The notes below the pieces were generated by a model. That model made no database searches, had not been told where the DNA came from, and was given only the letters and a program-made list of their open reading frames with translations. From an uncultured Methanosarcinales archaeon (lineage in GTDB: Archaea; Nanobdellota; Nanobdellia; Woesearchaeales; 21-14-0-10-32-9), in NCBI GenBank assembly GCA_964501945.1, contig CAZCTY010000002.1, positions 2,541-66,540 on the forward strand: 64,000 nucleotides of DNA. Direction: 5' to 3'. Position 1 is the first letter of the stretch, and every line of letters starts with the position of its first letter. The position numbers were made by a program, and so were the translations under genes. Of this stretch, positions 4,696 through 61,292 are shown piece by piece.

Positions 4696-5559
4696 TCAAA
4701 AAAATAAAACCAACCAATTACCAAAAATTAACAAGAGAACATACGTAATAAAAAAACTTGGAATAAAAGGAATGCCTTCTTTAACTTTTACCTCACTAAC
4801 ACCCTTATTTTTTAACAACTCAATCTCACTACTAGAAATACCAGTCTTGCCAATAGCGAAAGGCTTATTATCAAAAACAAATTCATCAATAACCCAATCC
4901 CCCTCAACGAGATTAGAAACTTTAATTTTTTTAATTAAAGAAGACTCCTCAACAGCTTTGAGTAAAACACCAAAATAGTAAAGAAAAAATAATAACAGAG
5001 AAAAAATGAAAAGAATAACAAATAATCTAAAATCAAAACCAAAAGCTAAAGCCAAAATTAAAAACAAAAAAACAAATAAGAACAAAAACAAAACCCAACG
5101 AGGCTTTTTAGACGCGAAAAAACGATATTTTTTTAAAAAAATTTTACGATTTAAAAAAGCCATAATAACTAACCAAACCAAACCATACAGCGCGCCAATT
5201 ATAAGAGATGAAATAATAAATACTAAAAACATAGGCAAAGATGAATCTAAGAAAAAAGGATTAAAACCTAAAACAGCGCCAATACCCATAACCATTTTAG
5301 CATCTCCGCCGCCCCACTGACCAGAATAATAAAATAAGGCACCAATACAAAAACCAACAAATAAACCAAAAAGAGAATACACAATATAAGAACTGTCAAA
5401 ATAGAAAATAGATAATAAAGAGTTAAGTAATAAACCAATAGCAATAAGAGAAAAATTTAACGTATCAGGAACCTCGTGCTTTTTAAAATCAGTGATAGAA
5501 CCCAAAAAAAGAGCCAACAATATAACAAAATTCTGAATCATAAAACAAAAAAGTTCCAC
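4696..5559 (-). CDS. A24-family prepilin/preflagellin aspartyl peptidase
   Basis: Polytopic protein with a first Asp context SITDFKKHEVPD, a second catalytic motif GQWGGGDAKMVMGIG, and C-terminal EGIPFIPSF. A soluble insert of about 60 aa precedes the last TM. Confidence 0.75.
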   Translation of the reverse strand: MELFCFMIQNFVILLALFLGSITDFKKHEVPDTLNFSLIAIGLLLNSLLSIFYFDSSYIVYSLFGLFVGFCIGALFYYSGQWGGGDAKMVMGIGAVLGFNPFFLDSSLPMFLVFIISSLIIGALYGLVWLVIMAFLNRKIFLKKYRFFASKKPRWVLFLFLFVFLFLILALAFGFDFRLFVILFIFSLLLFFLYYFGVLLKAVEESSLIKKIKVSNLVEGDWVIDEFVFDNKPFAIGKTGISSSEIELLKNKGVSEVKVKEGIPFIPSFFITYVLLLIFGNWLVLFF

Positions 5560-17721: not shown

Positions 17722-19191
17722 CTAAAAAAGAGAATTAAACCAATTAAAAAGGTCCCTGATAAAATTAGAACGATTATTTGAATTAACAAAATCTAATTCT
17801 TTAATATCAAAAGGAGCATCATCAACAAAGGCAACGTTATAAGGCTCAGTGTTACCAAAAATATCAACCACTCTATATAAAATTTTATCTTGATTCTCAT
17901 CAATTAAAACAGGCTCTTGAAAAACCCACCAAGAAGAACCATTATCAAAACTATATTGAAAAATATCCGCACCAACAGAATTATTAGAACTTAAAACAAA
18001 ACCAGGATTAATAAAACCATCCCCTTCTATTTTAACAAATTCAAGATTACTCTCAACAGACTCATATGAAATGTTTAAAGAAATACTCTTAGACGTAGAA
18101 AATCCTGCATCATCAACAGCATTAAAAGTCACATCACAAACACTTTCACTTTGAATGCAACCTAATTCAAAAGGATAAACGCTTGCAGAAAAATTACCAC
18201 CAAAAGATAAGTCCCCCTCAAAGAACACATCACCTGAATAAACATTTTCTAAAAACTTAACCGAAGAAGGATACGCATTAAAACTTATATTAAATTCTTC
18301 AAACCAATCAACACTACTTGGAAGGTTTAAATTTGAAATAGAAGGCTTTGAAGTTATATCTGTTTCTTTTACAAATAAAAAAAAATTAGAAGATAAAACT
18401 CGCCGCCTATCCAAAACATCTTCATCCTCGTTTAGTGCAATACCTGATTGAATACTTGAGAGATTAAACAAAGCAGACTCCTTATAATCAAGCCTAAAAA
18501 AACCATCCTCACCCCACTCATCACCCCAACTATTTTTTAAAATCCAATAATTTCCAGAATCATTATACCCAATTAATAAAACACTATGCGCAAACAAAAA
18601 ATCACCACTTTCATAAGAATAAACCCCGCCCGTATAATTTTTAAAATCCTCATAAACATACATCCTAGCAGCAACAGGACCATAATTTACTAATACGTGC
18701 TTAACAGTATCAAAAACCCCATCAGATACACGATAATAACCTGGAATAGAAAGCCTGCCAACAGAAGTATTCTCACAAAGATAACTAAACACATCAACCC
18801 CACGATAATCAAGAAAATAATTAGAAACAACACCCTCCTCAACAACAAAATCTAAAGCGCGATGTTTAAAACCACCAATGCAAGAAATATCCTCTGAACA
18901 AGATAAAATAAATTGTTCAGATAAATCAATATCATAATTAGAATCATTTAAATCCATACGAGCCCTCGCCTCAAGCAAAGAAGCAACAGTAAATGCAGTA
19001 CAAGAACCACAATCTCCTTGATCTTTTATAGGAGAAATCCACCCATAATCTCTTAAGTCAAAGCTAGATGGATTAGAAAAATTAACAATATGGGTGTAAT
19101 TAAAAAAATTATCCTCATAACTACTAACAAGAACTGAGAACCATAAAAAAAAGAAAAAAACAAACCCTAAAAAAAATATTTGCCTACCCAT
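17722..19191 (-). CDS. secreted papain-family (C1A) cysteine peptidase with a C-terminal beta-rich extension of about 230 aa
   Basis: Signal-like N-terminus MGRQIFFLGFVFFFFLWFSVLVSS. Catalytic contexts are DQGDCGSCTAF (Cys), AHSVLLIGY (His) and ILKNSWGDEWGEDGFF (Asn). Confidence 0.85.
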   Translation of the reverse strand: MGRQIFFLGFVFFFFLWFSVLVSSYEDNFFNYTHIVNFSNPSSFDLRDYGWISPIKDQGDCGSCTAFTVASLLEARARMDLNDSNYDIDLSEQFILSCSEDISCIGGFKHRALDFVVEEGVVSNYFLDYRGVDVFSYLCENTSVGRLSIPGYYRVSDGVFDTVKHVLVNYGPVAARMYVYEDFKNYTGGVYSYESGDFLFAHSVLLIGYNDSGNYWILKNSWGDEWGEDGFFRLDYKESALFNLSSIQSGIALNEDEDVLDRRRVLSSNFFLFVKETDITSKPSISNLNLPSSVDWFEEFNISFNAYPSSVKFLENVYSGDVFFEGDLSFGGNFSASVYPFELGCIQSESVCDVTFNAVDDAGFSTSKSISLNISYESVESNLEFVKIEGDGFINPGFVLSSNNSVGADIFQYSFDNGSSWWVFQEPVLIDENQDKILYRVVDIFGNTEPYNVAFVDDAPFDIKELDFVNSNNRSNFIRDLFNWFNSLF

Positions 19192-21914: not shown

Positions 21915-22688
21915 ATGCGCGGTGTATTTAAAAAAATATTATTGATTGGTGCAATTACAGGGTCTATGCTTTTACCTAAAAACGAGTACCAAATACAAGA
22001 TAGTAATAAAAATCTAGAAAACACAATAACAGCAGAAATTAAAAGAAATGAACTAGTAATAGATGCGAGTAGAAAGAATGTAGGCGTAGATTTTTACACA
22101 TTTTTTAGATACGTATACACAGATAAAGATTCAAGAACTTGCCCTGATAGCTACAGAGAATTAGAACCTAAAACGAAGCAAGATATAAAATTAGGACGCG
22201 CCCTTAAAGATTCATTACAAATTATATATGAATCAATGATACCAAATCATAAAAAAGAAGATAACTGGGGGCCGATGTTAAAGAGCGAGATGAGAATCCC
22301 TAATGGAACATATACGCCTTGGCACCAAGCATTAGACATATTCTCAAAGAACGGAACAAAAGTAATAGCACCTTTCTCAGGACTTGTAATTTCCTCAGGA
22401 GATATGTGGCGAGGAGAATATAATAACAATAAAATTACAAATTGGAACGGAAAAGGACTTACCATTAGAGGAGGAAACGGAGTTATAATATACAATCCCG
22501 AAGAGAGAGGATACATGTTAATAACGCACTTAGATGAAAACATAAAAGTTCAAGCAGGAGATTTTATAAGCAAAGGAAGCACCATTGGACGCATAGGCCC
22601 GACAGGAACTGCAAGTAGATTAGGACATGATAACCACATACACGTCGCATATAAATTACCTACAGAAGATAACTTATTAAAGCCATAA
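21915..22688 (+). CDS. secreted M23 (LytM/lysostaphin-type) metallopeptidase
   Basis: N-terminal hydrophobic signal KKILLIGAITGSMLL. HxxxD motif in WHQALD, HLDENIKVQAGDFISKGSTIGRIGPTG, and HxH in NHIHVAYK. Confidence 0.8.
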   Translation: MRGVFKKILLIGAITGSMLLPKNEYQIQDSNKNLENTITAEIKRNELVIDASRKNVGVDFYTFFRYVYTDKDSRTCPDSYRELEPKTKQDIKLGRALKDSLQIIYESMIPNHKKEDNWGPMLKSEMRIPNGTYTPWHQALDIFSKNGTKVIAPFSGLVISSGDMWRGEYNNNKITNWNGKGLTIRGGNGVIIYNPEERGYMLITHLDENIKVQAGDFISKGSTIGRIGPTGTASRLGHDNHIHVAYKLPTEDNLLKP

Positions 22689-43998: not shown

Positions 43999-45489
43999 TT
44001 AGAAATCTTCAACTTTTTTACGTTTAACCTTCCTAAAAACAGGAGGCGCAGATAAAACCCTACGCTCACGCTTGTTTTTAGTCTCAAACTTAGCACCAGC
44101 CCTTGGAAGAGTTAAATCCCCAACGACCCTAAGCTTAGATTTTAATTTATATGTAAAAATCCTCTCCTCAAAAGGCTCTAATTCATCTAAGTCCCAAAAG
44201 AGCATAGTGCCTTTTTTAGATGTCTTCGTAGTCCGAGACGGCTTAACATGACCTAACTGGTTAGATTCAATGTATGTTGTAATACCTCTAACCTTATCAC
44301 TTATAGTTAAGTTATTAACACTATTATTAGACCTATTCCTAATAAATAACCTAACCCTTAAATTAGAAGAACCCTCTTCCTCGTCCTCATCAACAACAGC
44401 TACTTCTTTTTCCACTATAACAGGACTTCTTAGTTTAAAGTACGCAACAACTAAAGCGATGATTAACAAAATAGCAAACACTAAAGGCCAATAATTAGTA
44501 GTTACAGTAATAGTTTTTTTCTCAGTAGGACTTAAAGTAGGCGTCCAAACCAAGTTATTCTCACCTTCAATCCTCTCAAAACTCGCAGCAGGATCAGAGC
44601 GAGAAAACAAGTTTTTAAACCAACTACTAGCAAGCTTAACCTCAGGGGTAGCTTCCCTATTACCAAAGTTTTCAACTTCAATTACATGATTTACTATGAA
44701 TAAAGCACTCCTAGACGTATCAAGCTTAGTTGGAGTAGACGAGTAACCCCTAACAGAAACAGTTTGCCTATCTTGAGATATAACACTATCAGTTCTAGGA
44801 TAATAAATTTGAGCAACAACTTCATACTCACCAGGCGCCTTTAAAGGATCCATAGAGAACACAAGCTCTTTTTCAATAGCATCCGCATCAGTTAAATGAG
44901 GTCCTGGCGGAATATCAATGACTTGTTCACCTTCAAATAAGTCACTTCTAATCCTAAGCTCAGCATCCTCAATGTTTAAAGGATTCCTATTTCTAAGTTT
45001 TACAAGAACACGAGCATTATCCCTAGGATCAATTTCATCAGCTAAAGATAAGGTTGTATTTACATTAGGAACAAAGTCAAAGAACAAACCATCAAAGCTT
45101 AGATGAACAGGAATATCAAGAACTTCTCTAAATTCTCCGCTACGCACGTTAAGATTTAACCTGTAAACACCAATAGGCGTAGCAGGATTAGGCTTGACAC
45201 TTAAAATGAAACTGTGCTCTGATGAGGCAGGCACTCTGACATTAGACGGATAAGATACCCATTTCAAAGAGTCACTAATAGATAACCCAAATGAGAAAAC
45301 CTTATCAACCGGTTCAAGATTTGTAATAGTTATATTATATTTAGCAGTCTCATCAGGACTTATCCTAAAATCAATATTCTCCCTTTCAATTAAAACATCC
45401 GATGCAGAAACACTCGGAATAAACGCAAAAAAAAGCGCTAATAAAAACAATACAAACACGTTAAATAGTAGTGACTTCTTTAATACCAT
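43999..45489 (-). CDS. bitopic surface protein: signal peptide, ectodomain of about 300 aa of beta-sandwich-like repeats, one TM, and a cytoplasmic DUF11/CARDB-like tail of about 145 aa
   Basis: Signal peptide LLALFFAFIPSVSAS/D. TM at aa 334-351 (WPLVFAILLIIALVVAYF) followed by KLR. The tail has LRVRLFIRNRSNNSVNNLTISDKV...MLFWDLDELEPFEERIFTYKLK. Confidence 0.55.
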   Translation of the reverse strand: MVLKKSLLFNVFVLFLLALFFAFIPSVSASDVLIERENIDFRISPDETAKYNITITNLEPVDKVFSFGLSISDSLKWVSYPSNVRVPASSEHSFILSVKPNPATPIGVYRLNLNVRSGEFREVLDIPVHLSFDGLFFDFVPNVNTTLSLADEIDPRDNARVLVKLRNRNPLNIEDAELRIRSDLFEGEQVIDIPPGPHLTDADAIEKELVFSMDPLKAPGEYEVVAQIYYPRTDSVISQDRQTVSVRGYSSTPTKLDTSRSALFIVNHVIEVENFGNREATPEVKLASSWFKNLFSRSDPAASFERIEGENNLVWTPTLSPTEKKTITVTTNYWPLVFAILLIIALVVAYFKLRSPVIVEKEVAVVDEDEEEGSSNLRVRLFIRNRSNNSVNNLTISDKVRGITTYIESNQLGHVKPSRTTKTSKKGTMLFWDLDELEPFEERIFTYKLKSKLRVVGDLTLPRAGAKFETKNKRERRVLSAPPVFRKVKRKKVEDF

Positions 45490-51996: not shown

Positions 51997-52207
51997 CTAG
52001 AAGAACCAACCCTCTCTCCATTCTTCTTCGTATATGACGGGGAAACAAAAAATCGTTTATAAAGTTTTGTTTTTAATAGAATAATAAATGTTTTTTAGTT
52101 ATTGCTGAGTAATAAATATTATAAATGGAGAGTGATTTCTTAACACATAAAGCTTACACAAAAACTGTTGTGATTTAATTCAATTAATTTAAGTGAGAGG
52201 TCAATAC

Positions 52208-53332
52208 ATGAAGCTTAGACACAGAGAAATAGTTAATTCAGCGTGCATTTCAGCACTCCTAGTTATTAATGCAGCGAATTTTACAGAAGGAGATGAGCCT
52301 AGCTTGAAGTATTTGAGAAATGCAAAGAATACTTTAGAGACTGCTGTGAATAAAATGCCGAATTTTAGTGAAGGTTTTAAGAGAACATCTGATTTTTTTT
52401 TAAAAACGAAAGATAAATTAAAAGATGTCGCGAGTAGAATTGATTTTGGCCAAGATACAGATGAGGAATATTTTGAAAACGATAGCTTTGATTATGAAGC
52501 TTTGATTAATCGCGCATTAAAAAGCGATGAACATAACCTTGTTGATTCTGTTATAAAATTTGTTCCAAAAGATTTCCTTAGAGAATACATAGATAATGAA
52601 GCAAAAAATAGCAATCCTAATTATAATCGCTTAATGCTCGCATCAAGAACAGGCGAGGAAATTAGAGATAAGCGATTTAATAGCGGAAGAAATTTTAATG
52701 AATCACTTAGAAATATGGCCGCGAGTGCGAATGTTAGACCTGGATCTTTTGGAAGCCGAGGAGAACTTAAAGAATTTTTAGATTTGTATAAAGATGATTT
52801 CGTAGAGGTTGCAAAAGAGTATGATTTAAATCCTTCTCTGCTCGCAAGCATTGCAAGCGTTGAGAGTCGAGGAAGAACGTTTACAATTTCAAATACAGGA
52901 GCACTCGGAGCGTTTGGACAGACAAGCTATGCATATATGCCTCAAACTAATTGGTTTGATGGAAATGGACGAGATGCAATAAATCCTTTTCATACATTAG
53001 AGGCCATGGATAGAGCCGGCGATATGATTAGAGGATTAATTGATTTATATGCACGAGTTGATGATGAACACCACACATTAGCATTAACAACATACAATCA
53101 AGGAGAAGCCGTTGTTAATAGAGCCATAAGATTGGCAAGACAAGAAGGCATTTTTGAACCTAAAAAAATAATTCAACACACAAATAATACAAGACGAGAT
53201 AGAAATATTTTTTCAATCGCAACACGTGAGGGAAGAAATTACTCCGCGCATATTCAAAGAGAAAATGTTATTATGAGCGAGTATTTTAATACTCAATTTG
53301 ATAATCTTGCAAATACTCATTCATATGAATAG
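52208..53332 (+). CDS. SLT-domain (GH23) lytic transglycosylase with an N-terminal region of about 200 aa of unknown function
   Basis: LLASIASVESRGRTFTISNTGALGAFGQTS (E-S...S..GA.G..Q signature) and LTTYNQGEAVVNRAI (AYNxG motif). The ATG at 52208 has a GAGAGG RBS upstream. The track ORF starts at GTG 52193. Weak hydrophobic N-terminus ACISALLVINAANF. Confidence 0.75.
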   Translation: MKLRHREIVNSACISALLVINAANFTEGDEPSLKYLRNAKNTLETAVNKMPNFSEGFKRTSDFFLKTKDKLKDVASRIDFGQDTDEEYFENDSFDYEALINRALKSDEHNLVDSVIKFVPKDFLREYIDNEAKNSNPNYNRLMLASRTGEEIRDKRFNSGRNFNESLRNMAASANVRPGSFGSRGELKEFLDLYKDDFVEVAKEYDLNPSLLASIASVESRGRTFTISNTGALGAFGQTSYAYMPQTNWFDGNGRDAINPFHTLEAMDRAGDMIRGLIDLYARVDDEHHTLALTTYNQGEAVVNRAIRLARQEGIFEPKKIIQHTNNTRRDRNIFSIATREGRNYSAHIQRENVIMSEYFNTQFDNLANTHSYE

Positions 53333-54200: not shown

Positions 54201-54845
54201 ATGTCAGATAAAAAAGATGAACCAACACCAGCCGAAAAGGCACAAAAGAAAATAGTCAAAGGATACAATGAAACAGTCCCAGGCGCAGTATTAGATTTTA
54301 AACACAAACAAGAAAAAGTACCCTACGATATCAGAGAACAGTTAATAAAAGATAAAGGCGCACCTGGAGCAGCAAAGTTCCTAAATACCGAAGATGGACA
54401 AAAATACATGATAGAACACCTAAAAGCAGGAAGCGAAAAAGTAGGATATGAAAGCCTGAAAAAAATAGGAAAAGTAGACGACTACTTAGCTGCACAATTC
54501 ATGGGAAACTTCATGCTAAACCAACAAGCACTAGCACAAGAAGTAGGCAGAAACGGATCACAATTCGACGGCGGAAATTACATGAAAGTACTACAACCAA
54601 ACATAGGAAACGTACAAGAAGGAGCTTTACTTAGAGTTGCAAACAGTTACGACCCAAAACTATCATCAGAATTACTTAAGAAAACAGGCACAGCAAAGTA
54701 CATGAAAGATACAAAAGACGTAAGCCCAACACAAGTAACACAAATAGTAGGTCTTGATGAAGGTGGAAAAAACCCACAAGGACCAAGCACACTAAGACAA
54801 CTAGGACTTGAAGATAAATTAAACGAAAAATACAGATTAAACTAA
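54201..54845 (+). CDS. hypothetical protein, paralogue B (no signal peptide)
   Basis: GAGGT RBS 9 nt upstream. EQLIKDKGAPGAAKF aligns with paralogue A, and the two are similar in length. Confidence 0.45.
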   Translation: MSDKKDEPTPAEKAQKKIVKGYNETVPGAVLDFKHKQEKVPYDIREQLIKDKGAPGAAKFLNTEDGQKYMIEHLKAGSEKVGYESLKKIGKVDDYLAAQFMGNFMLNQQALAQEVGRNGSQFDGGNYMKVLQPNIGNVQEGALLRVANSYDPKLSSELLKKTGTAKYMKDTKDVSPTQVTQIVGLDEGGKNPQGPSTLRQLGLEDKLNEKYRLN

Positions 54846-54942: not shown

Positions 54943-57144
54943 TTAAGATTTAGACACAGTGAATGTTTGAGGATACCTTTTAGATGCATTGTTTACCAAA
55001 TCAAACACTTCCAAATCTTGATGAAGCAACAATTCCTGATAATCATAAGACGGATAGACAACATCAAAATAATCTACAGATAACAAATCATCTTTAGATA
55101 TGTTAAAAGTAAATTCATCCCTCAATTCCATGAACCCAAGAACTAAAGATTCATTAAAAACAATCTTTTCTAAGAAAACTTCCTCATCATCAACAAATAA
55201 GCCACTAATAAAACCATCAGGACCAACTTCATAAGTCTGATTTTCAATTACCCAAGGCTCATCTAAATCTAAAGAACTAACAACTTGAACGTTATACCTA
55301 CCCGGGACAAACCCCACAACATCAGACTCATGAGGCGCTTCAAAATCAACAACCCTAAAAAACTCAGAATCACCAGGCTCTTGAACCCTACTAAAAATAA
55401 CAACAACAGATTCATCATCATAAGGCAAATGCGTAGACTCACTCAACGCAACAGACCACTCCCTTGAAAAATCAGGCTCATCAGGAAGAGGATAAAGACC
55501 TAATTGAGGAGAGAATCTTAAAGTTCCAACACTAACCTCAACTTCTCTTTCAGGATAAACCTCAAAATCAACTTCAACAACGCCATCATCAACAATAAAG
55601 TCTTTAGTAACAGGAGATGCGAAGTAAGAATAATCATTAATAGATAAAGTGCCCCCAATACAAGGAGGAACATAAGTTTCAACATATACTTCATCCTCAT
55701 CTAATACCTCAAGATAAATAGATTCAGAACCACAACTATACTGAACAGATAAATCATAAACAGGATCAGATGTGTACGCATCAAATAAATTAATCCTAAC
55801 AGGAACAGTCCTCTGATCAACCGCTCCAAAACCACTCTCAAAGACATCATCCTCATCAAAATCAAACTCAGGGAAATCATCAAGCAAAGAAACCCTAGGC
55901 TCATTATTAACCAGATTAACAGTTACAGGGAATTGAAAAAAGAAACCATCCCCACCAAAAGAATCAGATTCTTCTAAAGTTATAAGAATAGGATAAACTA
56001 AGTCATAAGCATACTCATAACGCGTAACCCCAACCTCACCAATTAAAGGCATATCAACAGAACTACCCGCGTCCCTAACAGGACCAACCATGTCCCCCGA
56101 ACTTGGAAGAATATCTAAAAACATAGGCCACGAGCTAAAGAAATTAAACCTTACTTTAGTACTCTCAAGAACCTCAGGCTCAACTAATTCCAAAGGAAAT
56201 TGAAACTGAGAATAAATACCATCCAAATAAGGATTTTGCGTCATAGGAACATAAGAATCCCTCGAACCCCTAATTTGAAAATAAGGAACAGTCTCTTGAA
56301 GAGTTTGTTTTAACTCTTCCTCAACTGATGATATAGACCAAAACCTAAAGGAAGGCCCCATCTCAACATCAGGAGAGATAGGAGGAATATCAGCATCCTT
56401 GCCACCCATACTCAAAATAGATAAAATGAGACGAGTAGATTTTTCTAAGAAAGGCTCCTCATCTAAGAACTGAGTTTGAAGAGCAATTTGAGACGCTAAT
56501 TCATAAACATCCCTAAAACGAACATCAACAGTATTACTAAAACGACTAATAGATGAATCAAGGCCAGACGGAAATACAATAGATAAAGGATAATTTAAAC
56601 CAATGAAAACATCATCATCCCTAAAACGAACATCCGCAGACGGCTCTGCAGGAATAACCTCAAAGTCCTCATAATCCTCAAAATTATTAACACACTCCAA
56701 AATATTTTGCTCAACGTAATTACCAACCTGATACGCAATAGAACCACGACCACCAGATAGAGGAGGCACATTAAAAACATAAGAACTACCCTCATCCCTA
56801 GGAGAACCATCAAAATACAACCAAAAAGGCAAAACCCTATCACTACCCTCAAATATTTCTAAACCGGTATTCAAATAAGCAGGCTCATAACCATACATAA
56901 CATTACTCGCATCAGAAAAACCACCAGACCTACCAAGATCTTCAAGTACTTCACGACCAAGATCAGCAATACAATGATTAACACTATTCACCAAAGGCTG
57001 CAATTGAGCATCAACATCCTCAGAGAATTCATCTTCAACATCTAAATCAGGATCAACTTGAAAGATAAAAAAGAAAGCAATAAATGCTAAAATAAATACA
57101 ATCAAACCCAAAATGACAAATATAGTAACCTGACCTTTTTTCAT
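54943..57144 (-). CDS. 733-aa acidic, Lys-poor surface protein with an archaeal class III (type IV pilin-like) signal peptide
   Basis: The N-terminus MKKGQVTIFVILGLIVFILAFIAFFFIF has a basic n-region, Gly at -1, Gln at +1 and a long hydrophobic stretch. The ATG lies 2 nt after the upstream gene's stop, with GGTGGGGG inside the upstream gene's last codons. Confidence 0.6.
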   Translation of the reverse strand: MKKGQVTIFVILGLIVFILAFIAFFFIFQVDPDLDVEDEFSEDVDAQLQPLVNSVNHCIADLGREVLEDLGRSGGFSDASNVMYGYEPAYLNTGLEIFEGSDRVLPFWLYFDGSPRDEGSSYVFNVPPLSGGRGSIAYQVGNYVEQNILECVNNFEDYEDFEVIPAEPSADVRFRDDDVFIGLNYPLSIVFPSGLDSSISRFSNTVDVRFRDVYELASQIALQTQFLDEEPFLEKSTRLILSILSMGGKDADIPPISPDVEMGPSFRFWSISSVEEELKQTLQETVPYFQIRGSRDSYVPMTQNPYLDGIYSQFQFPLELVEPEVLESTKVRFNFFSSWPMFLDILPSSGDMVGPVRDAGSSVDMPLIGEVGVTRYEYAYDLVYPILITLEESDSFGGDGFFFQFPVTVNLVNNEPRVSLLDDFPEFDFDEDDVFESGFGAVDQRTVPVRINLFDAYTSDPVYDLSVQYSCGSESIYLEVLDEDEVYVETYVPPCIGGTLSINDYSYFASPVTKDFIVDDGVVEVDFEVYPEREVEVSVGTLRFSPQLGLYPLPDEPDFSREWSVALSESTHLPYDDESVVVIFSRVQEPGDSEFFRVVDFEAPHESDVVGFVPGRYNVQVVSSLDLDEPWVIENQTYEVGPDGFISGLFVDDEEVFLEKIVFNESLVLGFMELRDEFTFNISKDDLLSVDYFDVVYPSYDYQELLLHQDLEVFDLVNNASKRYPQTFTVSKS

Positions 57145-57146
57145 TA

Positions 57147-60100
57147 CTACTCAACCCCCACCCTTTGACAAAGCCTATTATCTCTAACACTTACAGCGTG
57201 AAAATAATCAGACAACCTATTAGTTTCAAATTCAATACAAAACTTCTCATAAACCCTCTCAGAACTGAAATCAGAAGGATTACTAAAACCACCAAAACTA
57301 ACCCTAGTGTTAGCCCCAGAAATTAAAATATCATCTCCTGCGACATTATTAGTGTAATCGTGCTCCCTACCAGAAGAATCATACGCAACGAGCCTAAACC
57401 TCAAGCCCTCAAGCTGAGCCTCCACCCCACCTTGAATCCAATAATCATAAAAACCTAATTCATCAGGAGAAGAAGTCCTCCTCGCAGCAATGAAAGCACC
57501 AGGCCTAGTACCACCACCAGCCCTAGTAGTAATAGAACCAGACGCACCCGCAGGAGGCGCAACAGGCTCATTGAAAGAATCATCACAAAAAGCCCTCTCA
57601 GGCTCAGTCACATAATCTAAAGACATAGCCAACTGACCCATAGCAGTATCATCCCTCCACTCACGATTATCAATACCAACAATGTCCGCTGCAATAGATA
57701 ATCCAAGCGCGCCCTCACGCATACGACCAAAAGAAGACATAGACTCATAACGCTCAGCTTGCTCAGCCATGTATTCATTAAACGCAATTTTTATACCATC
57801 CATAGCCTCACCAAACCAAGACCTACTACCCTCAGTTATCTCATCATTCATAGCACGCCTAAGCTGCCTACGATTAAGATCGTCAATATCATCAATATTA
57901 TTATCATCTAAAAGCTCTCGAATAAATTCCTCACTATACCCCGTTTCTCTTGAAATAATGTTCCAATCCAAATCATTTAAAGAATCCCTACGCCCCGCAT
58001 AATTATCTAAGACATCAAATACAGGCTGAAGCTCATCACGCCTATTTTGCTCATTAGTCAAACGCCTCGCCTTCTCCCACCTAATCTCAGCAGCCCTAAC
58101 CGCATAATCATACGCGACCTCGTTTTCAGCATAATAAGCAGCATAATACTCATTTATGTACTCCTTCATAATATCCTCGGCATTGTTATCTGCCAATAAA
58201 CCTAAAAAGCCCATTTCATCAGGCATCGAACCAAGATTAGCCTCAGCTTCATCTAAAAAATTATTTAACTCATCAAGCTCATTTTCTAATCTTTCACGAG
58301 TACCACTATCTAAAGCCTCCCAATCAGTTTCCTCTAACTCATATTGTATTGCAGATAACACACCAATATAAACAGGATCATAACTATCTAAAGCATCTAA
58401 ATCATCAAAAGCATTTTGCAAAGCTTCCTTTCGAACACCATCTACACCTTCCCAATCAGTATTCTCCAATTCATCACGAATAGCACCCATCCTCATAGAC
58501 GTATCTATATAAAATTGATCTAAAATTTCTCTTCGCTCACCCGCTAAATCAGTTAAACTATCATAACGAGAATCTAAGACATAACCCATTTGATTACCTT
58601 CAGGACCATAAACTAATAACTGCCTACCAATATCCACAGTATCCTCAGAAGTCATAATTGTCCTACCAATGAGCTGATCATCACCATCATATATGTAACA
58701 AGTATTACCCGTACACATAGCCCTATCCCCACCATCACCAAGAGGCATCTCCGTAGGTTCATATTCATCAAGGAATGTTTCTCTACCATAACCAAAACCT
58801 TCACGCTGAGCATCCATCTCCCAATTCCTCTGAATCATACCAATCGCACCAGTTAAAGCAGGAGAACACCTATCTTTAACATCATCACTCATACCAAAAC
58901 CCATCATTAATTGATCAACTGTACTTCTAATACGCTGATATTGAACAGGCAAACTCATAGCAGTTTGAGCAACAACACAAGCCCCATGAGCACTCGCAGA
59001 ACCAGTAGATAATAACCTACAAGCATAAGGGATCGCCCCACCAAGAAGAGCTGCAGGATCACGAATCATATTTTGAACGTCTTGCGCCGCATTAGTAAAC
59101 ATGTTAGTGAAAGGTAAAGCATACAAAACATTACCCGCCGTTCTAATACAATGATCATAACCACGATTACGCTCACAATGCTCAACAGATAAACCCATAG
59201 TACTAACACCTTCATTTAAACAAAGAGCATAATTACACTCAATACCCTGAGCAACCCTCCTATGATAAACAAAAGCAGGAAGACACATAGTCGCAACAGC
59301 CACATATTCACTCTTATATGGATTAAATAACTCCCTACTAGACATACTAAGATTACTCGCTATATCATCAACCCTCAAAGTCTCTCTTAAATCACCAAGA
59401 CCAATAGTGTCACTGTAAAAAGAATCAACCCAAGAAGATTCACACGCAATCGCCTCACACACAGGAACACCCAACTCAGCTAAAGTACCATAAGTCTCAT
59501 CTAACCCCGCAGTAACCGGCTGAAGAGTTTGACCTAAAGGCGCACCAACAACAGATGCCTCCGCGGCGGCCTGAGTCGCACCAAGCGCACCCCTAGCAGT
59601 ATCTGCTGAATGAGTAGCCCTACAAAGACCTTGAATCATATTAAGCGATTGCTCTAAACCATCAAGACGCCTATCAGTACGCTCAACACGCTCATTAACA
59701 GCATCAATTGTTTCATAAATTTTCTCATCAAGAGTGTAACCTTCTTCTAAATCAAATTTAACAGTGAAGTTTTTTTGCTCAGGAATCGCATAAAAATAAC
59801 CAAGATCAACAGACCTCAAATCTAAGCCACAATTAAATTCCAAAGTATCATAATCAGCATAACGATGATCATCACGAATAGTAAGACCAGCCCCCCTAAG
59901 TGTTAAACGAAGATACGCCACGTTAGATTCCTTATTAACATCTAATAACCTCAAATTAGAAACATCCCCCCTACGACCAGTTTCATTCTCAACAACAGGC
60001 AAACACCTAAAATTAGAAATATCAACAGATACCAAATCAGCATCCCCAATTAATTCAACTTCAAGGAAAATATCCCTACTATAAGCCAAGTTCCTAATCG

Positions 60101-61199
60101 TAAGAGAGTCAGCTTGCTGATTAACATTACCAACAGACCAAAAATCAGGAACCTCATCAGATTGAACTTCAACAATGTCAACAGAAACAGAGGAGTGAAC
60201 CTCATTACCAGCAAGATCTGAGAAAATAACAGGAATTTCATAAACTCCCTTCTCAGAGACAAAAGAGGTAACATCAATAGAACAAACAAAAACACCATCC
60301 CTATCAACACATTCACGAGAAAGATTAGCAGAGTTCACAGGATCACCAATGACCTTCATTTCAACAACAGGACTAACATCCTCAGATACATTAGCCCTAA
60401 TAGTAAAAGAATCAGAAACCCTCGTAATACCTAAATCAGAAGACTCATCAACACCAATAAACTCAACTACAGGAGGAGAAGAATCACAAATAAATTCACC
60501 AACCTCAGACGGAGAAACACGCATACCCGCATCATCCCAACTACGCTGATTATCAATACGCGCAGTAATACTGCTACCATCAGCACAAGAAAAAGAAGCT
60601 GAAGTAAAACCCCTACAAGTAAAATCCTCACAATCACTAAGTAAAGCAGTACTCTGACCGATACGCGCCCTCACATTACCTCTACTAAAACCAACATCAG
60701 AGTTTTCTAATACAACAGATAAGTTGTTAATACCAGAAGATACATAACAAGTACCATCATGACACTGATTAGACGTAAAAGACGAGACACGAGGAGTAGA
60801 AGTTGCAAGTTGCAAAGAAACATTTTCTTGCACGATGACACCTTGCCTGCTAAAATAGAATTCAAATACACCATCCCCATCGTTTTTTAATAAACGCAAG
60901 TTATTAATCCTACAATTAAATACACCATTTTCCTCGACGCAGTTAGGCGCAATACTATTGTAATTAGCAATATTTGAATCATAACCAAAAGCCTCATTTA
61001 CACCAGAAGCATCAACGACTAAGTTAGAAGCATTAGCTGAAAATTCTAAGTGAACAATAATAAGATTACCCCTAGAATAATGAGTAACCTCACTACCCGC
61101 AGCAGTGAATGAAAGATCACTAATTTCTAAGGAGAGCGCAGGCGATGAGAGTAATAATAAGAAAGACAAAAAAAACAATGAATATACTATAAATTTCAA
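57147..61199 (-). CDS. 1350-aa secreted, Cys-rich, acidic giant protein of unknown family
   Basis: TTG start with GGTG 6 nt upstream. Sec-type signal MKFIVYSLFFLSFLLLLSSPALS/LE. The N-terminal half is beta-rich with paired Cys, followed by a central Cys-rich helical block, acidic 44-aa repeats and a beta-rich C-terminus. No TM anchor. Confidence 0.6.
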   Translation of the reverse strand: MKFIVYSLFFLSFLLLLSSPALSLEISDLSFTAAGSEVTHYSRGNLIIVHLEFSANASNLVVDASGVNEAFGYDSNIANYNSIAPNCVEENGVFNCRINNLRLLKNDGDGVFEFYFSRQGVIVQENVSLQLATSTPRVSSFTSNQCHDGTCYVSSGINNLSVVLENSDVGFSRGNVRARIGQSTALLSDCEDFTCRGFTSASFSCADGSSITARIDNQRSWDDAGMRVSPSEVGEFICDSSPPVVEFIGVDESSDLGITRVSDSFTIRANVSEDVSPVVEMKVIGDPVNSANLSRECVDRDGVFVCSIDVTSFVSEKGVYEIPVIFSDLAGNEVHSSVSVDIVEVQSDEVPDFWSVGNVNQQADSLTIRNLAYSRDIFLEVELIGDADLVSVDISNFRCLPVVENETGRRGDVSNLRLLDVNKESNVAYLRLTLRGAGLTIRDDHRYADYDTLEFNCGLDLRSVDLGYFYAIPEQKNFTVKFDLEEGYTLDEKIYETIDAVNERVERTDRRLDGLEQSLNMIQGLCRATHSADTARGALGATQAAAEASVVGAPLGQTLQPVTAGLDETYGTLAELGVPVCEAIACESSWVDSFYSDTIGLGDLRETLRVDDIASNLSMSSRELFNPYKSEYVAVATMCLPAFVYHRRVAQGIECNYALCLNEGVSTMGLSVEHCERNRGYDHCIRTAGNVLYALPFTNMFTNAAQDVQNMIRDPAALLGGAIPYACRLLSTGSASAHGACVVAQTAMSLPVQYQRIRSTVDQLMMGFGMSDDVKDRCSPALTGAIGMIQRNWEMDAQREGFGYGRETFLDEYEPTEMPLGDGGDRAMCTGNTCYIYDGDDQLIGRTIMTSEDTVDIGRQLLVYGPEGNQMGYVLDSRYDSLTDLAGERREILDQFYIDTSMRMGAIRDELENTDWEGVDGVRKEALQNAFDDLDALDSYDPVYIGVLSAIQYELEETDWEALDSGTRERLENELDELNNFLDEAEANLGSMPDEMGFLGLLADNNAEDIMKEYINEYYAAYYAENEVAYDYAVRAAEIRWEKARRLTNEQNRRDELQPVFDVLDNYAGRRDSLNDLDWNIISRETGYSEEFIRELLDDNNIDDIDDLNRRQLRRAMNDEITEGSRSWFGEAMDGIKIAFNEYMAEQAERYESMSSFGRMREGALGLSIAADIVGIDNREWRDDTAMGQLAMSLDYVTEPERAFCDDSFNEPVAPPAGASGSITTRAGGGTRPGAFIAARRTSSPDELGFYDYWIQGGVEAQLEGLRFRLVAYDSSGREHDYTNNVAGDDILISGANTRVSFGGFSNPSDFSSERVYEKFCIEFETNRLSDYFHAVSVRDNRLCQRVGVE

Positions 61200-61292
61200 C
61201 GCTCACACCTTTTTTATAACTAGTTGTGTTTTTATTTAAATATTTTTCTAATAAATATAGACTAAAAACTGATAAATGAAAAAACAAAAAAA

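Follow-up and report, generated by a model that had tools for sequence, protein, structure and literature searches.

Do two long, adjoining and strikingly lysine (Lys)-poor genes of an uncultured archaeon encode parts of a single structure, and if so, of what kind? The genes lie in a 64,000-nucleotide (nt) stretch of DNA (hereafter, the window; positions 2,541 to 66,540 of contig CAZCTY010000002.1, GenBank assembly GCA_964501945.1) that is placed in the Woesearchaeales by GTDB, and they encode proteins of 1350 and 733 amino acids (aa). We propose, with moderate confidence, that the two proteins form a stoichiometric cell-surface complex that is anchored by a pilin-like helix of the smaller partner and probably serves adhesion or host contact. 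Pfam and NCBIfam gave no match to either protein, PDB sequence searches (single sequences and family profiles) gave none, and no prior description of these families in Woesearchaeota or DPANN was found in the literature. An earlier reading made from the letters and open reading frames (ORFs) of this stretch (the sequence-only reading) had recognised no catalytic motif in the pair, and the searches of Pfam, NCBIfam and PDB agree with it, as no catalytic or known family was found; profile searches, too, returned no clear hit to a known family. The two genes and the signals around them are:

57147..61199, minus strand: 1350-aa gene ('BIG+CT'), predicted secreted partner; ORF with TTG start
54943..57144, minus strand: 733-aa gene ('PIL1'), pilin-like protein with predicted anchor; ORF with ATG start
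57142..57162, minus strand: gene junction, read from sequence, with GGTGGGGG (57162-57155), TAG stop (57149-57147), 2-nt spacer and ATG (57144-57142)
61206..61240, minus strand: putative operon expression signals, from sequence only, with TATA-like TTTAAATA (61240-61233) and AGGTG (61210-61206)

Across the junction, the coding strand reads ...AGG GTG GGG GTT GAG TAG ta ATG AAA AAA GGT. The 2-nt gap that the sequence-only reading had reported is therefore borne out (stop 57149-57147, ATG 57144), and the ribosome-binding-site-like element that it had placed in the last codons of the upstream gene was located as GGTGGGGG at 57162-57155, within the final codons of the 1350-aa gene. Upstream of the pair, AGGTG stands 6 nt before the TTG start of the 1350-aa gene and, together with TTTAAATA, putatively serves the expression of the operon. 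The start of the large gene differs among public gene calls, giving 1350 aa (TTG, 61199) in one record and 1340 aa (61169) in two; when read from 61199, the protein begins with an MK... signal peptide and AGGTG precedes the start by 6 nt, and the longer form has the better signal peptide.

The proposed anchor lies at the N-terminus of the 733-aa protein, whose parts, and the gene of a possible processing enzyme, are:

57061..57144, minus strand: class III (prepilin-type) signal peptide and hydrophobic helix, residues 1-28, MKKG followed by QVTIFVILGLIVFILAFIAFFFIF; from invariant N-terminal columns, cleavage predicted
55885..57009, minus strand: N-terminal alpha/beta domain ('head'), about residues 46-420; from the AlphaFold2 (AF2) model and invariant columns
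54946..55806, minus strand: C-terminal stalk of about three beta-sandwich domains, about residues 447-733; from AF2 and local Foldseek matches
4696..5559, minus strand: prepilin (type IV leader) peptidase gene, outside the operon; Pfam Peptidase_A24, E=4.7e-15

The N-terminus is the best-conserved part of the family, with Q5, T7, F9, I11 and G13 invariant among proteins that are only 21-50% identical (for the N-terminal motif, the range is also given as 21-25%). Among 154 representatives, the consensus is [KR][KR]-[G/A/S]-Q-[IV]-T-[ILV]-F-[IV]-I-[IL]-G, after which ~12 further hydrophobic residues come; position -1, directly ahead of the Gln, is Gly in 96, Ala in 31 and Ser in 10, positions -2 and -3 are Lys or Arg, and the leader has a median length of 6 aa. 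The 733-aa N-terminus thus has the form of an archaeal class III (prepilin-type) signal peptide, with a predicted cleavage site. When the window was scanned for a FlaFind-type pattern plus hydrophobic run, the 733-aa gene was the only such ORF, and the hydrophobic segment of its product is N-terminal only. The Peptidase_A24 product (4696-5559) is a candidate processing enzyme for this protein; no pilin, ATPase or platform gene lies beside the peptidase gene in the 64-kb window.

Close relatives of the 733-aa protein come from metagenome-assembled genomes of Woesearchaeota/Nanoarchaeota. A profile search recovered 8370 clusters at 50% identity, of which 1622 had E<=1e-30, and among the best 150 clusters listed almost all members are full-length (690-790 aa). 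At least 318 relatives were found in GTDB species genomes, under the labels Woesearchaeota, Nanoarchaeota, Nanoarchaeia or Pacearchaeota. The invariant residues of the family are Cys (two pairs), Gly, Pro and aromatics, with no conserved catalytic-type residue among the invariant columns. All four Cys of the 733-aa protein are invariant, and they pair as C58/C151 in the head and C471/C495 in the stalk.

An AF2 model of the 733-aa protein, built on a 10-sequence alignment (predicted local distance difference test [pLDDT] 73, moderate confidence), consists of a helix (residues 3-28), a disordered acidic linker (29-45) and a second helix (46-72) that enters the alpha/beta head. Foldseek found local matches to CnaB, transthyretin-like and carboxypeptidase-regulatory-like domains only in the beta-sandwich part, and the matching proteins are Gram-positive pilins, adhesins and phage tail, baseplate and tail-fibre proteins (whole-protein template modelling [TM]-score 0.1-0.15). 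For the N-terminal head domain, PDB and viral libraries gave no fold match. The C-terminal half of the model is locally similar in fold to the CnaB/transthyretin-like stalk domains of SpaA, BcpA and SdrD; unlike in Gram-positive pilins and adhesins as whole proteins, the likeness is at the domain level only, there is no sequence similarity, and a C-terminal LPxTG is absent from the pair (a single internal LPSSG occurs at residue 346).

The larger partner is of a different build, and its parts are:

61131..61199, minus strand: Sec-type signal peptide, residues 1-23, MKFIVYSLFFLSFLLLLSSPALS; from sequence, hydropathy scan and equivalent N-termini in homologues, cleavage predicted
59730..61130, minus strand: beta-rich immunoglobulin (Ig)-like domain array, about residues 24-490; from AF2 secondary structure and Big_3_3 matches
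58770..59729, minus strand: all-helical Cys-rich core, about residues 491-810; from invariant Cys, predicted helical
57750..58769, minus strand: acidic, variable helical or coiled-coil-like region, about residues 811-1150; poorly conserved among homologues
57150..57749, minus strand: C-terminal domain, residues 1151-1350; from hidden Markov model (HMM) matches in relatives

Homologues of the large protein were gathered via the neighbours of 733-family genes, since a word-indexed search gave only three, even with a profile. Invariant residues were read from 41 sequences. The Ig-like array has recurring DxxxP and AxDxxGN motifs and conserved Cys pairs, with C195, D239, P243, D328, N332, C399 and C457 invariant; Big_3_3 (Pfam) weakly matched 7 of the 41 homologues, which otherwise had no Pfam match. 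The core carries the family motif CLPGIIYNLxKxRQIxCxYxxCL...G.P...C.....Y..C.YV.GE.F and nine further invariant Cys (C586, C639, C655, C660, C675, C684, C727, C741 and C778). Altogether, the 1350-aa protein has 28 Cys (~14 potential disulfides), 16 of which are invariant in the 41 homologues. All coiled-coil Pfam matches in the region ~811-1150 were sub-threshold. The N-terminal hydrophobic segment is the only one in the protein, and neither an LPxTG nor a PGF(-CTERM) motif was found in it. AF2 had a 3-sequence alignment for this protein and was used for secondary structure only.

Is the pairing of these two genes a property of the family or of this one contig? In all eight first-round contexts of 733-aa relatives, a signal-peptide protein of 1000-2100 aa adjoins the pilin-like gene, and in most of them it is homologous to about residues 50-850 of the 1350-aa protein. 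In 38 GTDB loci the families adjoin each other, and both gene orders occur; the clade of the window has the large gene upstream, and more distant relatives have it downstream. Among 80 GTDB loci, the full-length 733-family type accounts for 45 cases; a large partner was detected beside it in 32, and several of the remaining 13 had the partner one gene further off or were at a contig edge. Where the large gene is downstream, a 4-nt (ATGA-type) overlap is the commonest junction (19 of 33). Such an overlap is the classic arrangement for translational coupling. The co-translation and the probable stoichiometric complex proposed by the sequence-only reading thus gain support from adjacency, overlapping junctions and fusion or splitting of parts of the module across lineages. 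It had also named the independent occurrence of the two genes in relatives as a contrary outcome; the families proved to remain neighbours wherever a relative was examined with sufficient flanking sequence.

Most relatives have more than two genes. In the commonest gene order of the lineage, a pilin-like gene (~720 aa) is followed by a large Cys-rich gene (~1050 aa), a third protein (500-1200 aa), a polytopic membrane protein (~280 aa), a shorter pilin-like paralogue (~640 aa), a giant (1500-2200 aa) and the membrane protein again. In many genomes, two or three paralogous pairs share an operon with a polytopic membrane protein. A search of the window for this membrane protein, for the second pilin-like paralogue and for the giant paralogues found none of them. 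The C-terminal domain of the 1350-aa protein (1151-1350) is homologous to the C-terminus of the separate third protein of distant relatives (E=1e-10) and is present at 17 loci of the GTDB set; its HMM matched P0002, L003, L001 (frameshifted), L006 (split), L005 (911-aa gene, E=1e-10) and L009 (678-aa gene). Therefore, the second and third genes were fused in the clade of the window, with the pilin-like gene moved behind them. Based on hhalign comparisons, the giants behind the second pilin-like paralogue share the Ig-like array with the large protein (probability 98.9%), and the Cys-motif core was recovered between the large protein and one giant family (69%) and between two giant families (F2big and F8big, 96.8%). 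Thus, the combination of a pilin-like protein and a giant Cys-rich protein is an old, duplicated unit. In the accessory proteins of relatives, Pfam found only generic Ig/fn3 domains. Housekeeping synteny around the pair is common to the window and its relatives, and two neighbouring families that were at first taken as members of the module turned out to be methionyl-tRNA synthetase and a nucleotidyltransferase, which reflect this synteny only.

Several loci of relatives show further variation. The polytopic membrane protein (~280 aa) occurs in 41 copies in 39 loci among relatives L022-L092, without a Pfam match, and it separates the first module from the second pilin-like paralogue and recurs behind the giant (L051 9624-10494; L009 9157-9909 and 18360-19169); it may act in assembly or anchoring. 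Interruptions of the large gene occur in L001 (5972-9969), where a 1239-aa ORF and a 57-aa ORF matching the last 50 residues were not called by annotators, and in L006 (6319-9992, on the same contig as L018), where it is divided into 868 and 377 aa; L015 and L021 are similarly split. These interruptions could be frameshift errors, pseudogenes or programmed events. In L037 (84-4976, plus strand), a single 1630-aa ORF matches the pilin-like profile (111-712) and the large family (22-797); either the partners are naturally fused here or the assembly is wrong by 1 nt. The ribonucleotide reductase gene beside the pair in L003 (1-3770) carries an intein with a LAGLIDADG homing endonuclease (Pfam).

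The amino-acid composition that first drew attention to the pair was then a question of origin or of adaptation. The sequence-only reading had counted about 15 and 11 Lys, and these numbers are exact (1.1% of the 1350-aa and 1.5% of the 733-aa protein), which gives the pair the two lowest Lys fractions among the 52 ORFs of the window. Its picture of an otherwise Lys-rich window also stands: when the pair and four other secreted proteins are excluded, the 46 remaining ORFs have a median of 10.4% Lys (mean 10.9 +/- 3.6), and against this composition the depletion is unusual. The ratio K/(K+R) is 0.14 (1350-aa) and 0.28 (733-aa) versus a median of 0.71, and both proteins are acidic as that reading had stated (isoelectric points [pI] of 4.31 and 4.05). 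Its claim of unusual G+C holds in part: the values are raised (0.396 for the 1350-aa and 0.363 for the 733-aa gene versus ~0.34 in the window), but they are no outliers, as other genes reach 0.41-0.43. From the amino-acid composition of each gene and the way in which the remaining genes of the window use synonymous codons, we computed an expected G+C of 0.398 (1350-aa) and 0.368 (733-aa), in agreement with the observed values. The G+C is raised because AAA/AAG codons are few and codons for Asp, Glu, Arg, Gly and Ala are more numerous. The G+C at third codon positions (GC3) is ordinary (0.26 for the 1350-aa and 0.24 for the 733-aa gene), and the codon-usage distances to the rest of the window (0.23 and 0.21) are typical for long genes of the same strand. 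Since G+C matches the amino-acid expectation, and GC3 and codon usage are ordinary, both genes are native, and the raised G+C is a by-product of amino-acid composition that is uninformative on origin. Horizontal transfer as the source of the composition was rejected on the same measures.

The depletion extends, in milder form, to four other clearly secreted proteins of the window (K/(K+R) 0.38-0.63; Mann-Whitney p=0.002 versus the rest, also given as p=0.002-0.003):

17722-19191, minus strand: papain-family (Peptidase_C1) protease with signal peptide; secreted, Lys-poor
52193-53332, plus strand: SLT transglycosylase; secreted, Lys-poor
21915-22688, plus strand: M23 peptidase; secreted, Lys-poor
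43999-45489: DUF11-type protein; secreted, Lys-poor

In relatives (80 loci), the two families average 6.0% and 5.8% Lys versus 8.3-8.9% in neighbouring genes. The window pair is the Lys extreme of both families, and the next lowest values are 2.1/3.0% and 2.5/2.5% in two relatives. At columns where Lys is conserved in homologues, the window proteins carry Arg at 4 of 8 and 6 of 18. We infer that, in this lineage, selection acts against Lys at exposed surfaces, with positive charge kept as Arg where needed. The extreme depletion looks like a lineage-specific exaggeration of the trend among the secreted proteins of this organism, and like an adaptation of exposed protein surfaces to the outside milieu rather than a mark of foreign origin. 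By analogy, the acidic, Lys-poor pattern resembles a halophilic-type surface adaptation, here in an organism with Lys-rich cytoplasmic proteins. The papain-family protease (17722-19191) has 2.7% Lys and a pI of 4.15, and it is rich in N-glycosylation sequons (13 versus 5.4 expected), whereas the pair is not.

How would such a pair be assembled? In the proposed mechanism, the prepilin peptidase (4696-5559) would cut the 733-aa protein after Gly4, leaving an N-terminal Gln and a hydrophobic helix of ~24 residues. By this helix the protein would be fixed in the membrane or in a short pilus-like stem, as in archaeal binding proteins with class III signals and in modular pilins, and the remainder would project outward, with the alpha/beta head first and about three beta-sandwich stalk domains after it. 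Lacking an anchor of its own, the 1350-aa protein would be exported by Sec, fold with up to 14 disulfides into the Ig-like array, the Cys-rich helical core and the C-terminal domain, and be retained on the cell by binding the 733-aa protein at roughly 1:1. Termination-reinitiation at the 2-nt junction would lead to roughly equimolar synthesis. The architecture points to adhesion, or to contact with a host cell or particle, as the likeliest role. Of all this, the sequence-only reading had caught the coupling and the Lys depletion; it had missed the class III signal, the Sec signal with ~14 potential disulfides, and the fact that the secreted proteins of the window are generally Lys-poor.

Several observations weigh against an anchored complex of this kind. 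At the N-terminus of the 733-aa protein, the Pfam class III signal model (Class_IIIsignal/DUF361) gave no match at E<=1, and position +5 of the family is an invariant Phe, not the Glu of EppA pilins, even though the +1 Gln is present. In the AF2 model, which is of moderate confidence, the disordered acidic linker parts the N-terminal helix from the globular part, and the helix does not appear to run on into a canonical pilin fold. The distance from the GGTG element to the ATG of the 733-aa gene (10-15 nt) is rather far for a Shine-Dalgarno site, and the three-dimensional model of the 1350-aa protein is unreliable (pLDDT 45.6). Neither the scanned window ORFs nor the Pfam-annotated neighbourhoods of eight relatives include an ATPase or platform gene of type IV filaments near the pair. 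Finally, the family is nearly universal in the lineage and of constant length, a pattern more in keeping with a core structural role than with a host-specific adhesin.

A wider proposal, which we put forward tentatively and consider rather doubtful, is that the pair lies at the core of a surface organelle that defines the lineage of Woesearchaeota/Nanoarchaeia-type DPANN archaea, is so far undescribed and is built without a dedicated filament ATPase locus. It would be an envelope or host-contact structure that depends on the prepilin pathway, to which most relatives would add a third protein, the polytopic membrane protein and a second paralogous pair.

Among the competing explanations, the one that survives best, unlikely as we judge it, is that the pair makes up a two-component surface layer (S-layer), with the large protein as canopy and the 733-aa protein as membrane-anchored stalk, by analogy to SlaA/SlaB of Sulfolobales. 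The pair resembles that system in several respects: the genes are adjacent and coupled, a ~1400-aa protein is combined with a smaller, anchoring one, both proteins are acidic, and Ig-like and beta-sandwich domains are abundant. The near-universal presence of the pair in the lineage, with constant sizes and in a housekeeping neighbourhood, would suit an S-layer as well. S-layer proteins usually have a pI of 4-6, a range that includes the pair (pI 4.05-4.3), and typically few or no sulfur amino acids (PMC4232325), which is at odds with the 28 Cys of the large protein (16 invariant). Unlike SlaA/SlaB, to which it has no homology, the pair has an N-terminal prepilin-type helix as its anchor rather than a C-terminal transmembrane segment, a Cys-rich large partner, and N-glycosylation sequons that are not enriched (8 versus 9.8 expected in the 1350-aa protein; 4 versus 2.8 in the 733-aa protein). 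The two or three paralogous pairs inside one genome, with membrane proteins in the same operon, also speak against it, and no sequence match to any known S-layer protein was found in Pfam, NCBIfam or PDB. No S-layer protein of DPANN archaea has been determined, and the candidates have ~1000 aa, ~5 Ig folds and no anchor (bioRxiv 10.1101/2023.10.27.564410).

Less likely still is a location at the tip of a type IV pilus, where the 733-aa protein would be a minor or modular pilin and the 1350-aa protein a non-pilin tip adhesin, comparable to minor pilins and PilY1. This is a special case of the anchored surface complex that differs only in placing it on a filament instead of the membrane. Like the bacterial tip (minor pilins plus PilY1/PilC), which is presumed to be adhesive, the pair joins a pilin-like protein having a class III signal peptide and a large, anchorless Sec-exported partner in one operon, and a prepilin peptidase gene is present in the window. 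In archaea, the loci of type IV filaments frequently encode large proteins that resemble adhesins, and some of these are remotely PilY-like (bioRxiv 10.64898/2026.04.22.720090). However, neither the window protein nor its 41 homologues matched PilC/PilY1 in Pfam, a minor-pilin set is lacking, and the lineage is archaeal. The proposal is weakened by the absence of ATPase and platform genes nearby and by the predicted flexible linker after the N-terminal helix, and the FlaFind-type motif scan of the window found no small major pilin. That the composition marks a horizontally acquired island, or that the genes are unrelated secreted neighbours that form no complex, is very improbable: the G+C somewhat above the window mean speaks for it, and the interaction is putative, but the G+C equals the amino-acid expectation with ordinary GC3 and codon-usage distance, the synteny with housekeeping genes is common to relatives, and the families have stayed side by side where the gene order is inverted, where the C-terminal domain is fused or split off and where the pair has been duplicated into paralogues.

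Among known systems, the proposed anchored surface complex was also compared with proteins that carry a class III signal. The closest format to the 733-aa N-terminus is that of the EppA-type pilins of Methanococcus, whose leaders have 5-13 aa ending in Gly and a Gln at +1 (PMC3875500). The EppA-processed pilins of Methanococcus maripaludis (DUF361/Class_IIIsignal) share with the 733-aa protein the leader of few residues, the conserved +1 Gln and the alternating conserved residues after the cut site; they differ in the Glu at +5 (Phe in the 733-aa protein), in length (60-300 aa versus 733 aa) and in their Pfam model, which is silent on the 733-aa protein. The sugar-binding 'bindosome' proteins of Sulfolobus, which have class III signals and are not filament components, and the modular pilins resemble the 733-aa protein in their short basic leader with a small end residue and in the helix that anchors a large extracellular part; their genes, too, lie apart from those of the filament ATPase and platform, and they require a prepilin peptidase (bioRxiv 10.64898/2026.04.22.720090). 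Unlike the bindosome proteins, the 733-aa protein is related to substrate-binding proteins neither in sequence nor in fold and has no ATP-binding cassette transporter encoded next to it, and compared to both groups it is much larger, has a beta-sandwich stalk and is paired with a giant Sec-exported partner. The kind of system is therefore known (surface proteins anchored by class III signals, with accessory partners), whereas no description of this module was found; its distinguishing features are the Cys-rich core domain, the three- to seven-gene organisation and the restriction to Woesearchaeota-like DPANN archaea.

The window contains other features of interest. Bacterial-type murein hydrolases are encoded in this archaeon, with an SLT lytic transglycosylase domain (52193-53332, plus strand) and an M23 peptidase (21915-22688, plus strand), and an SLT gene is also near the pair in relatives L001 and L002; these enzymes may bear on bacterial hosts or prey. 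The strands are asymmetric, with a GC skew of -0.2 to -0.4 over most of the plus strand and nearly all genes on the minus strand, and the few plus-strand genes show synonymous codon-usage distances of 0.5-1.0 versus ~0.2. One of these (54201-54845, plus strand), convergent with the pair, encodes a Lys-rich 214-aa protein without a family match; its position is conserved in the nearest relatives L010-L012, and its codon-usage distance (0.99) is the most deviant of the window.

Woesearchaeota-like DPANN archaea are abundant, almost entirely uncultured and thought to live attached to other cells. To our knowledge, no attachment or envelope protein of these archaea is known. The families of the pair comprise thousands of sequence clusters that are unannotated and conserved as a coupled module across the lineage, and the candidate surface complex is a target for cryo-electron tomography, proteomics and structure prediction. 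It offers testable features, namely the prepilin-type anchor, the disulfide-rich partner, the defined domains and a set of adjacent pairs, numbering thousands, on which co-evolution can be analysed. The Lys-poor, Arg-substituted acidic surfaces illustrate, in a natural setting, how selection can act on the chemical make-up of exposed proteins independently of genomic base composition. If the pair is indeed the core of a lineage-defining organelle, that organelle may be what these uncultured symbionts use for attachment or bridging, an apparatus long sought, or it may be their cell envelope.

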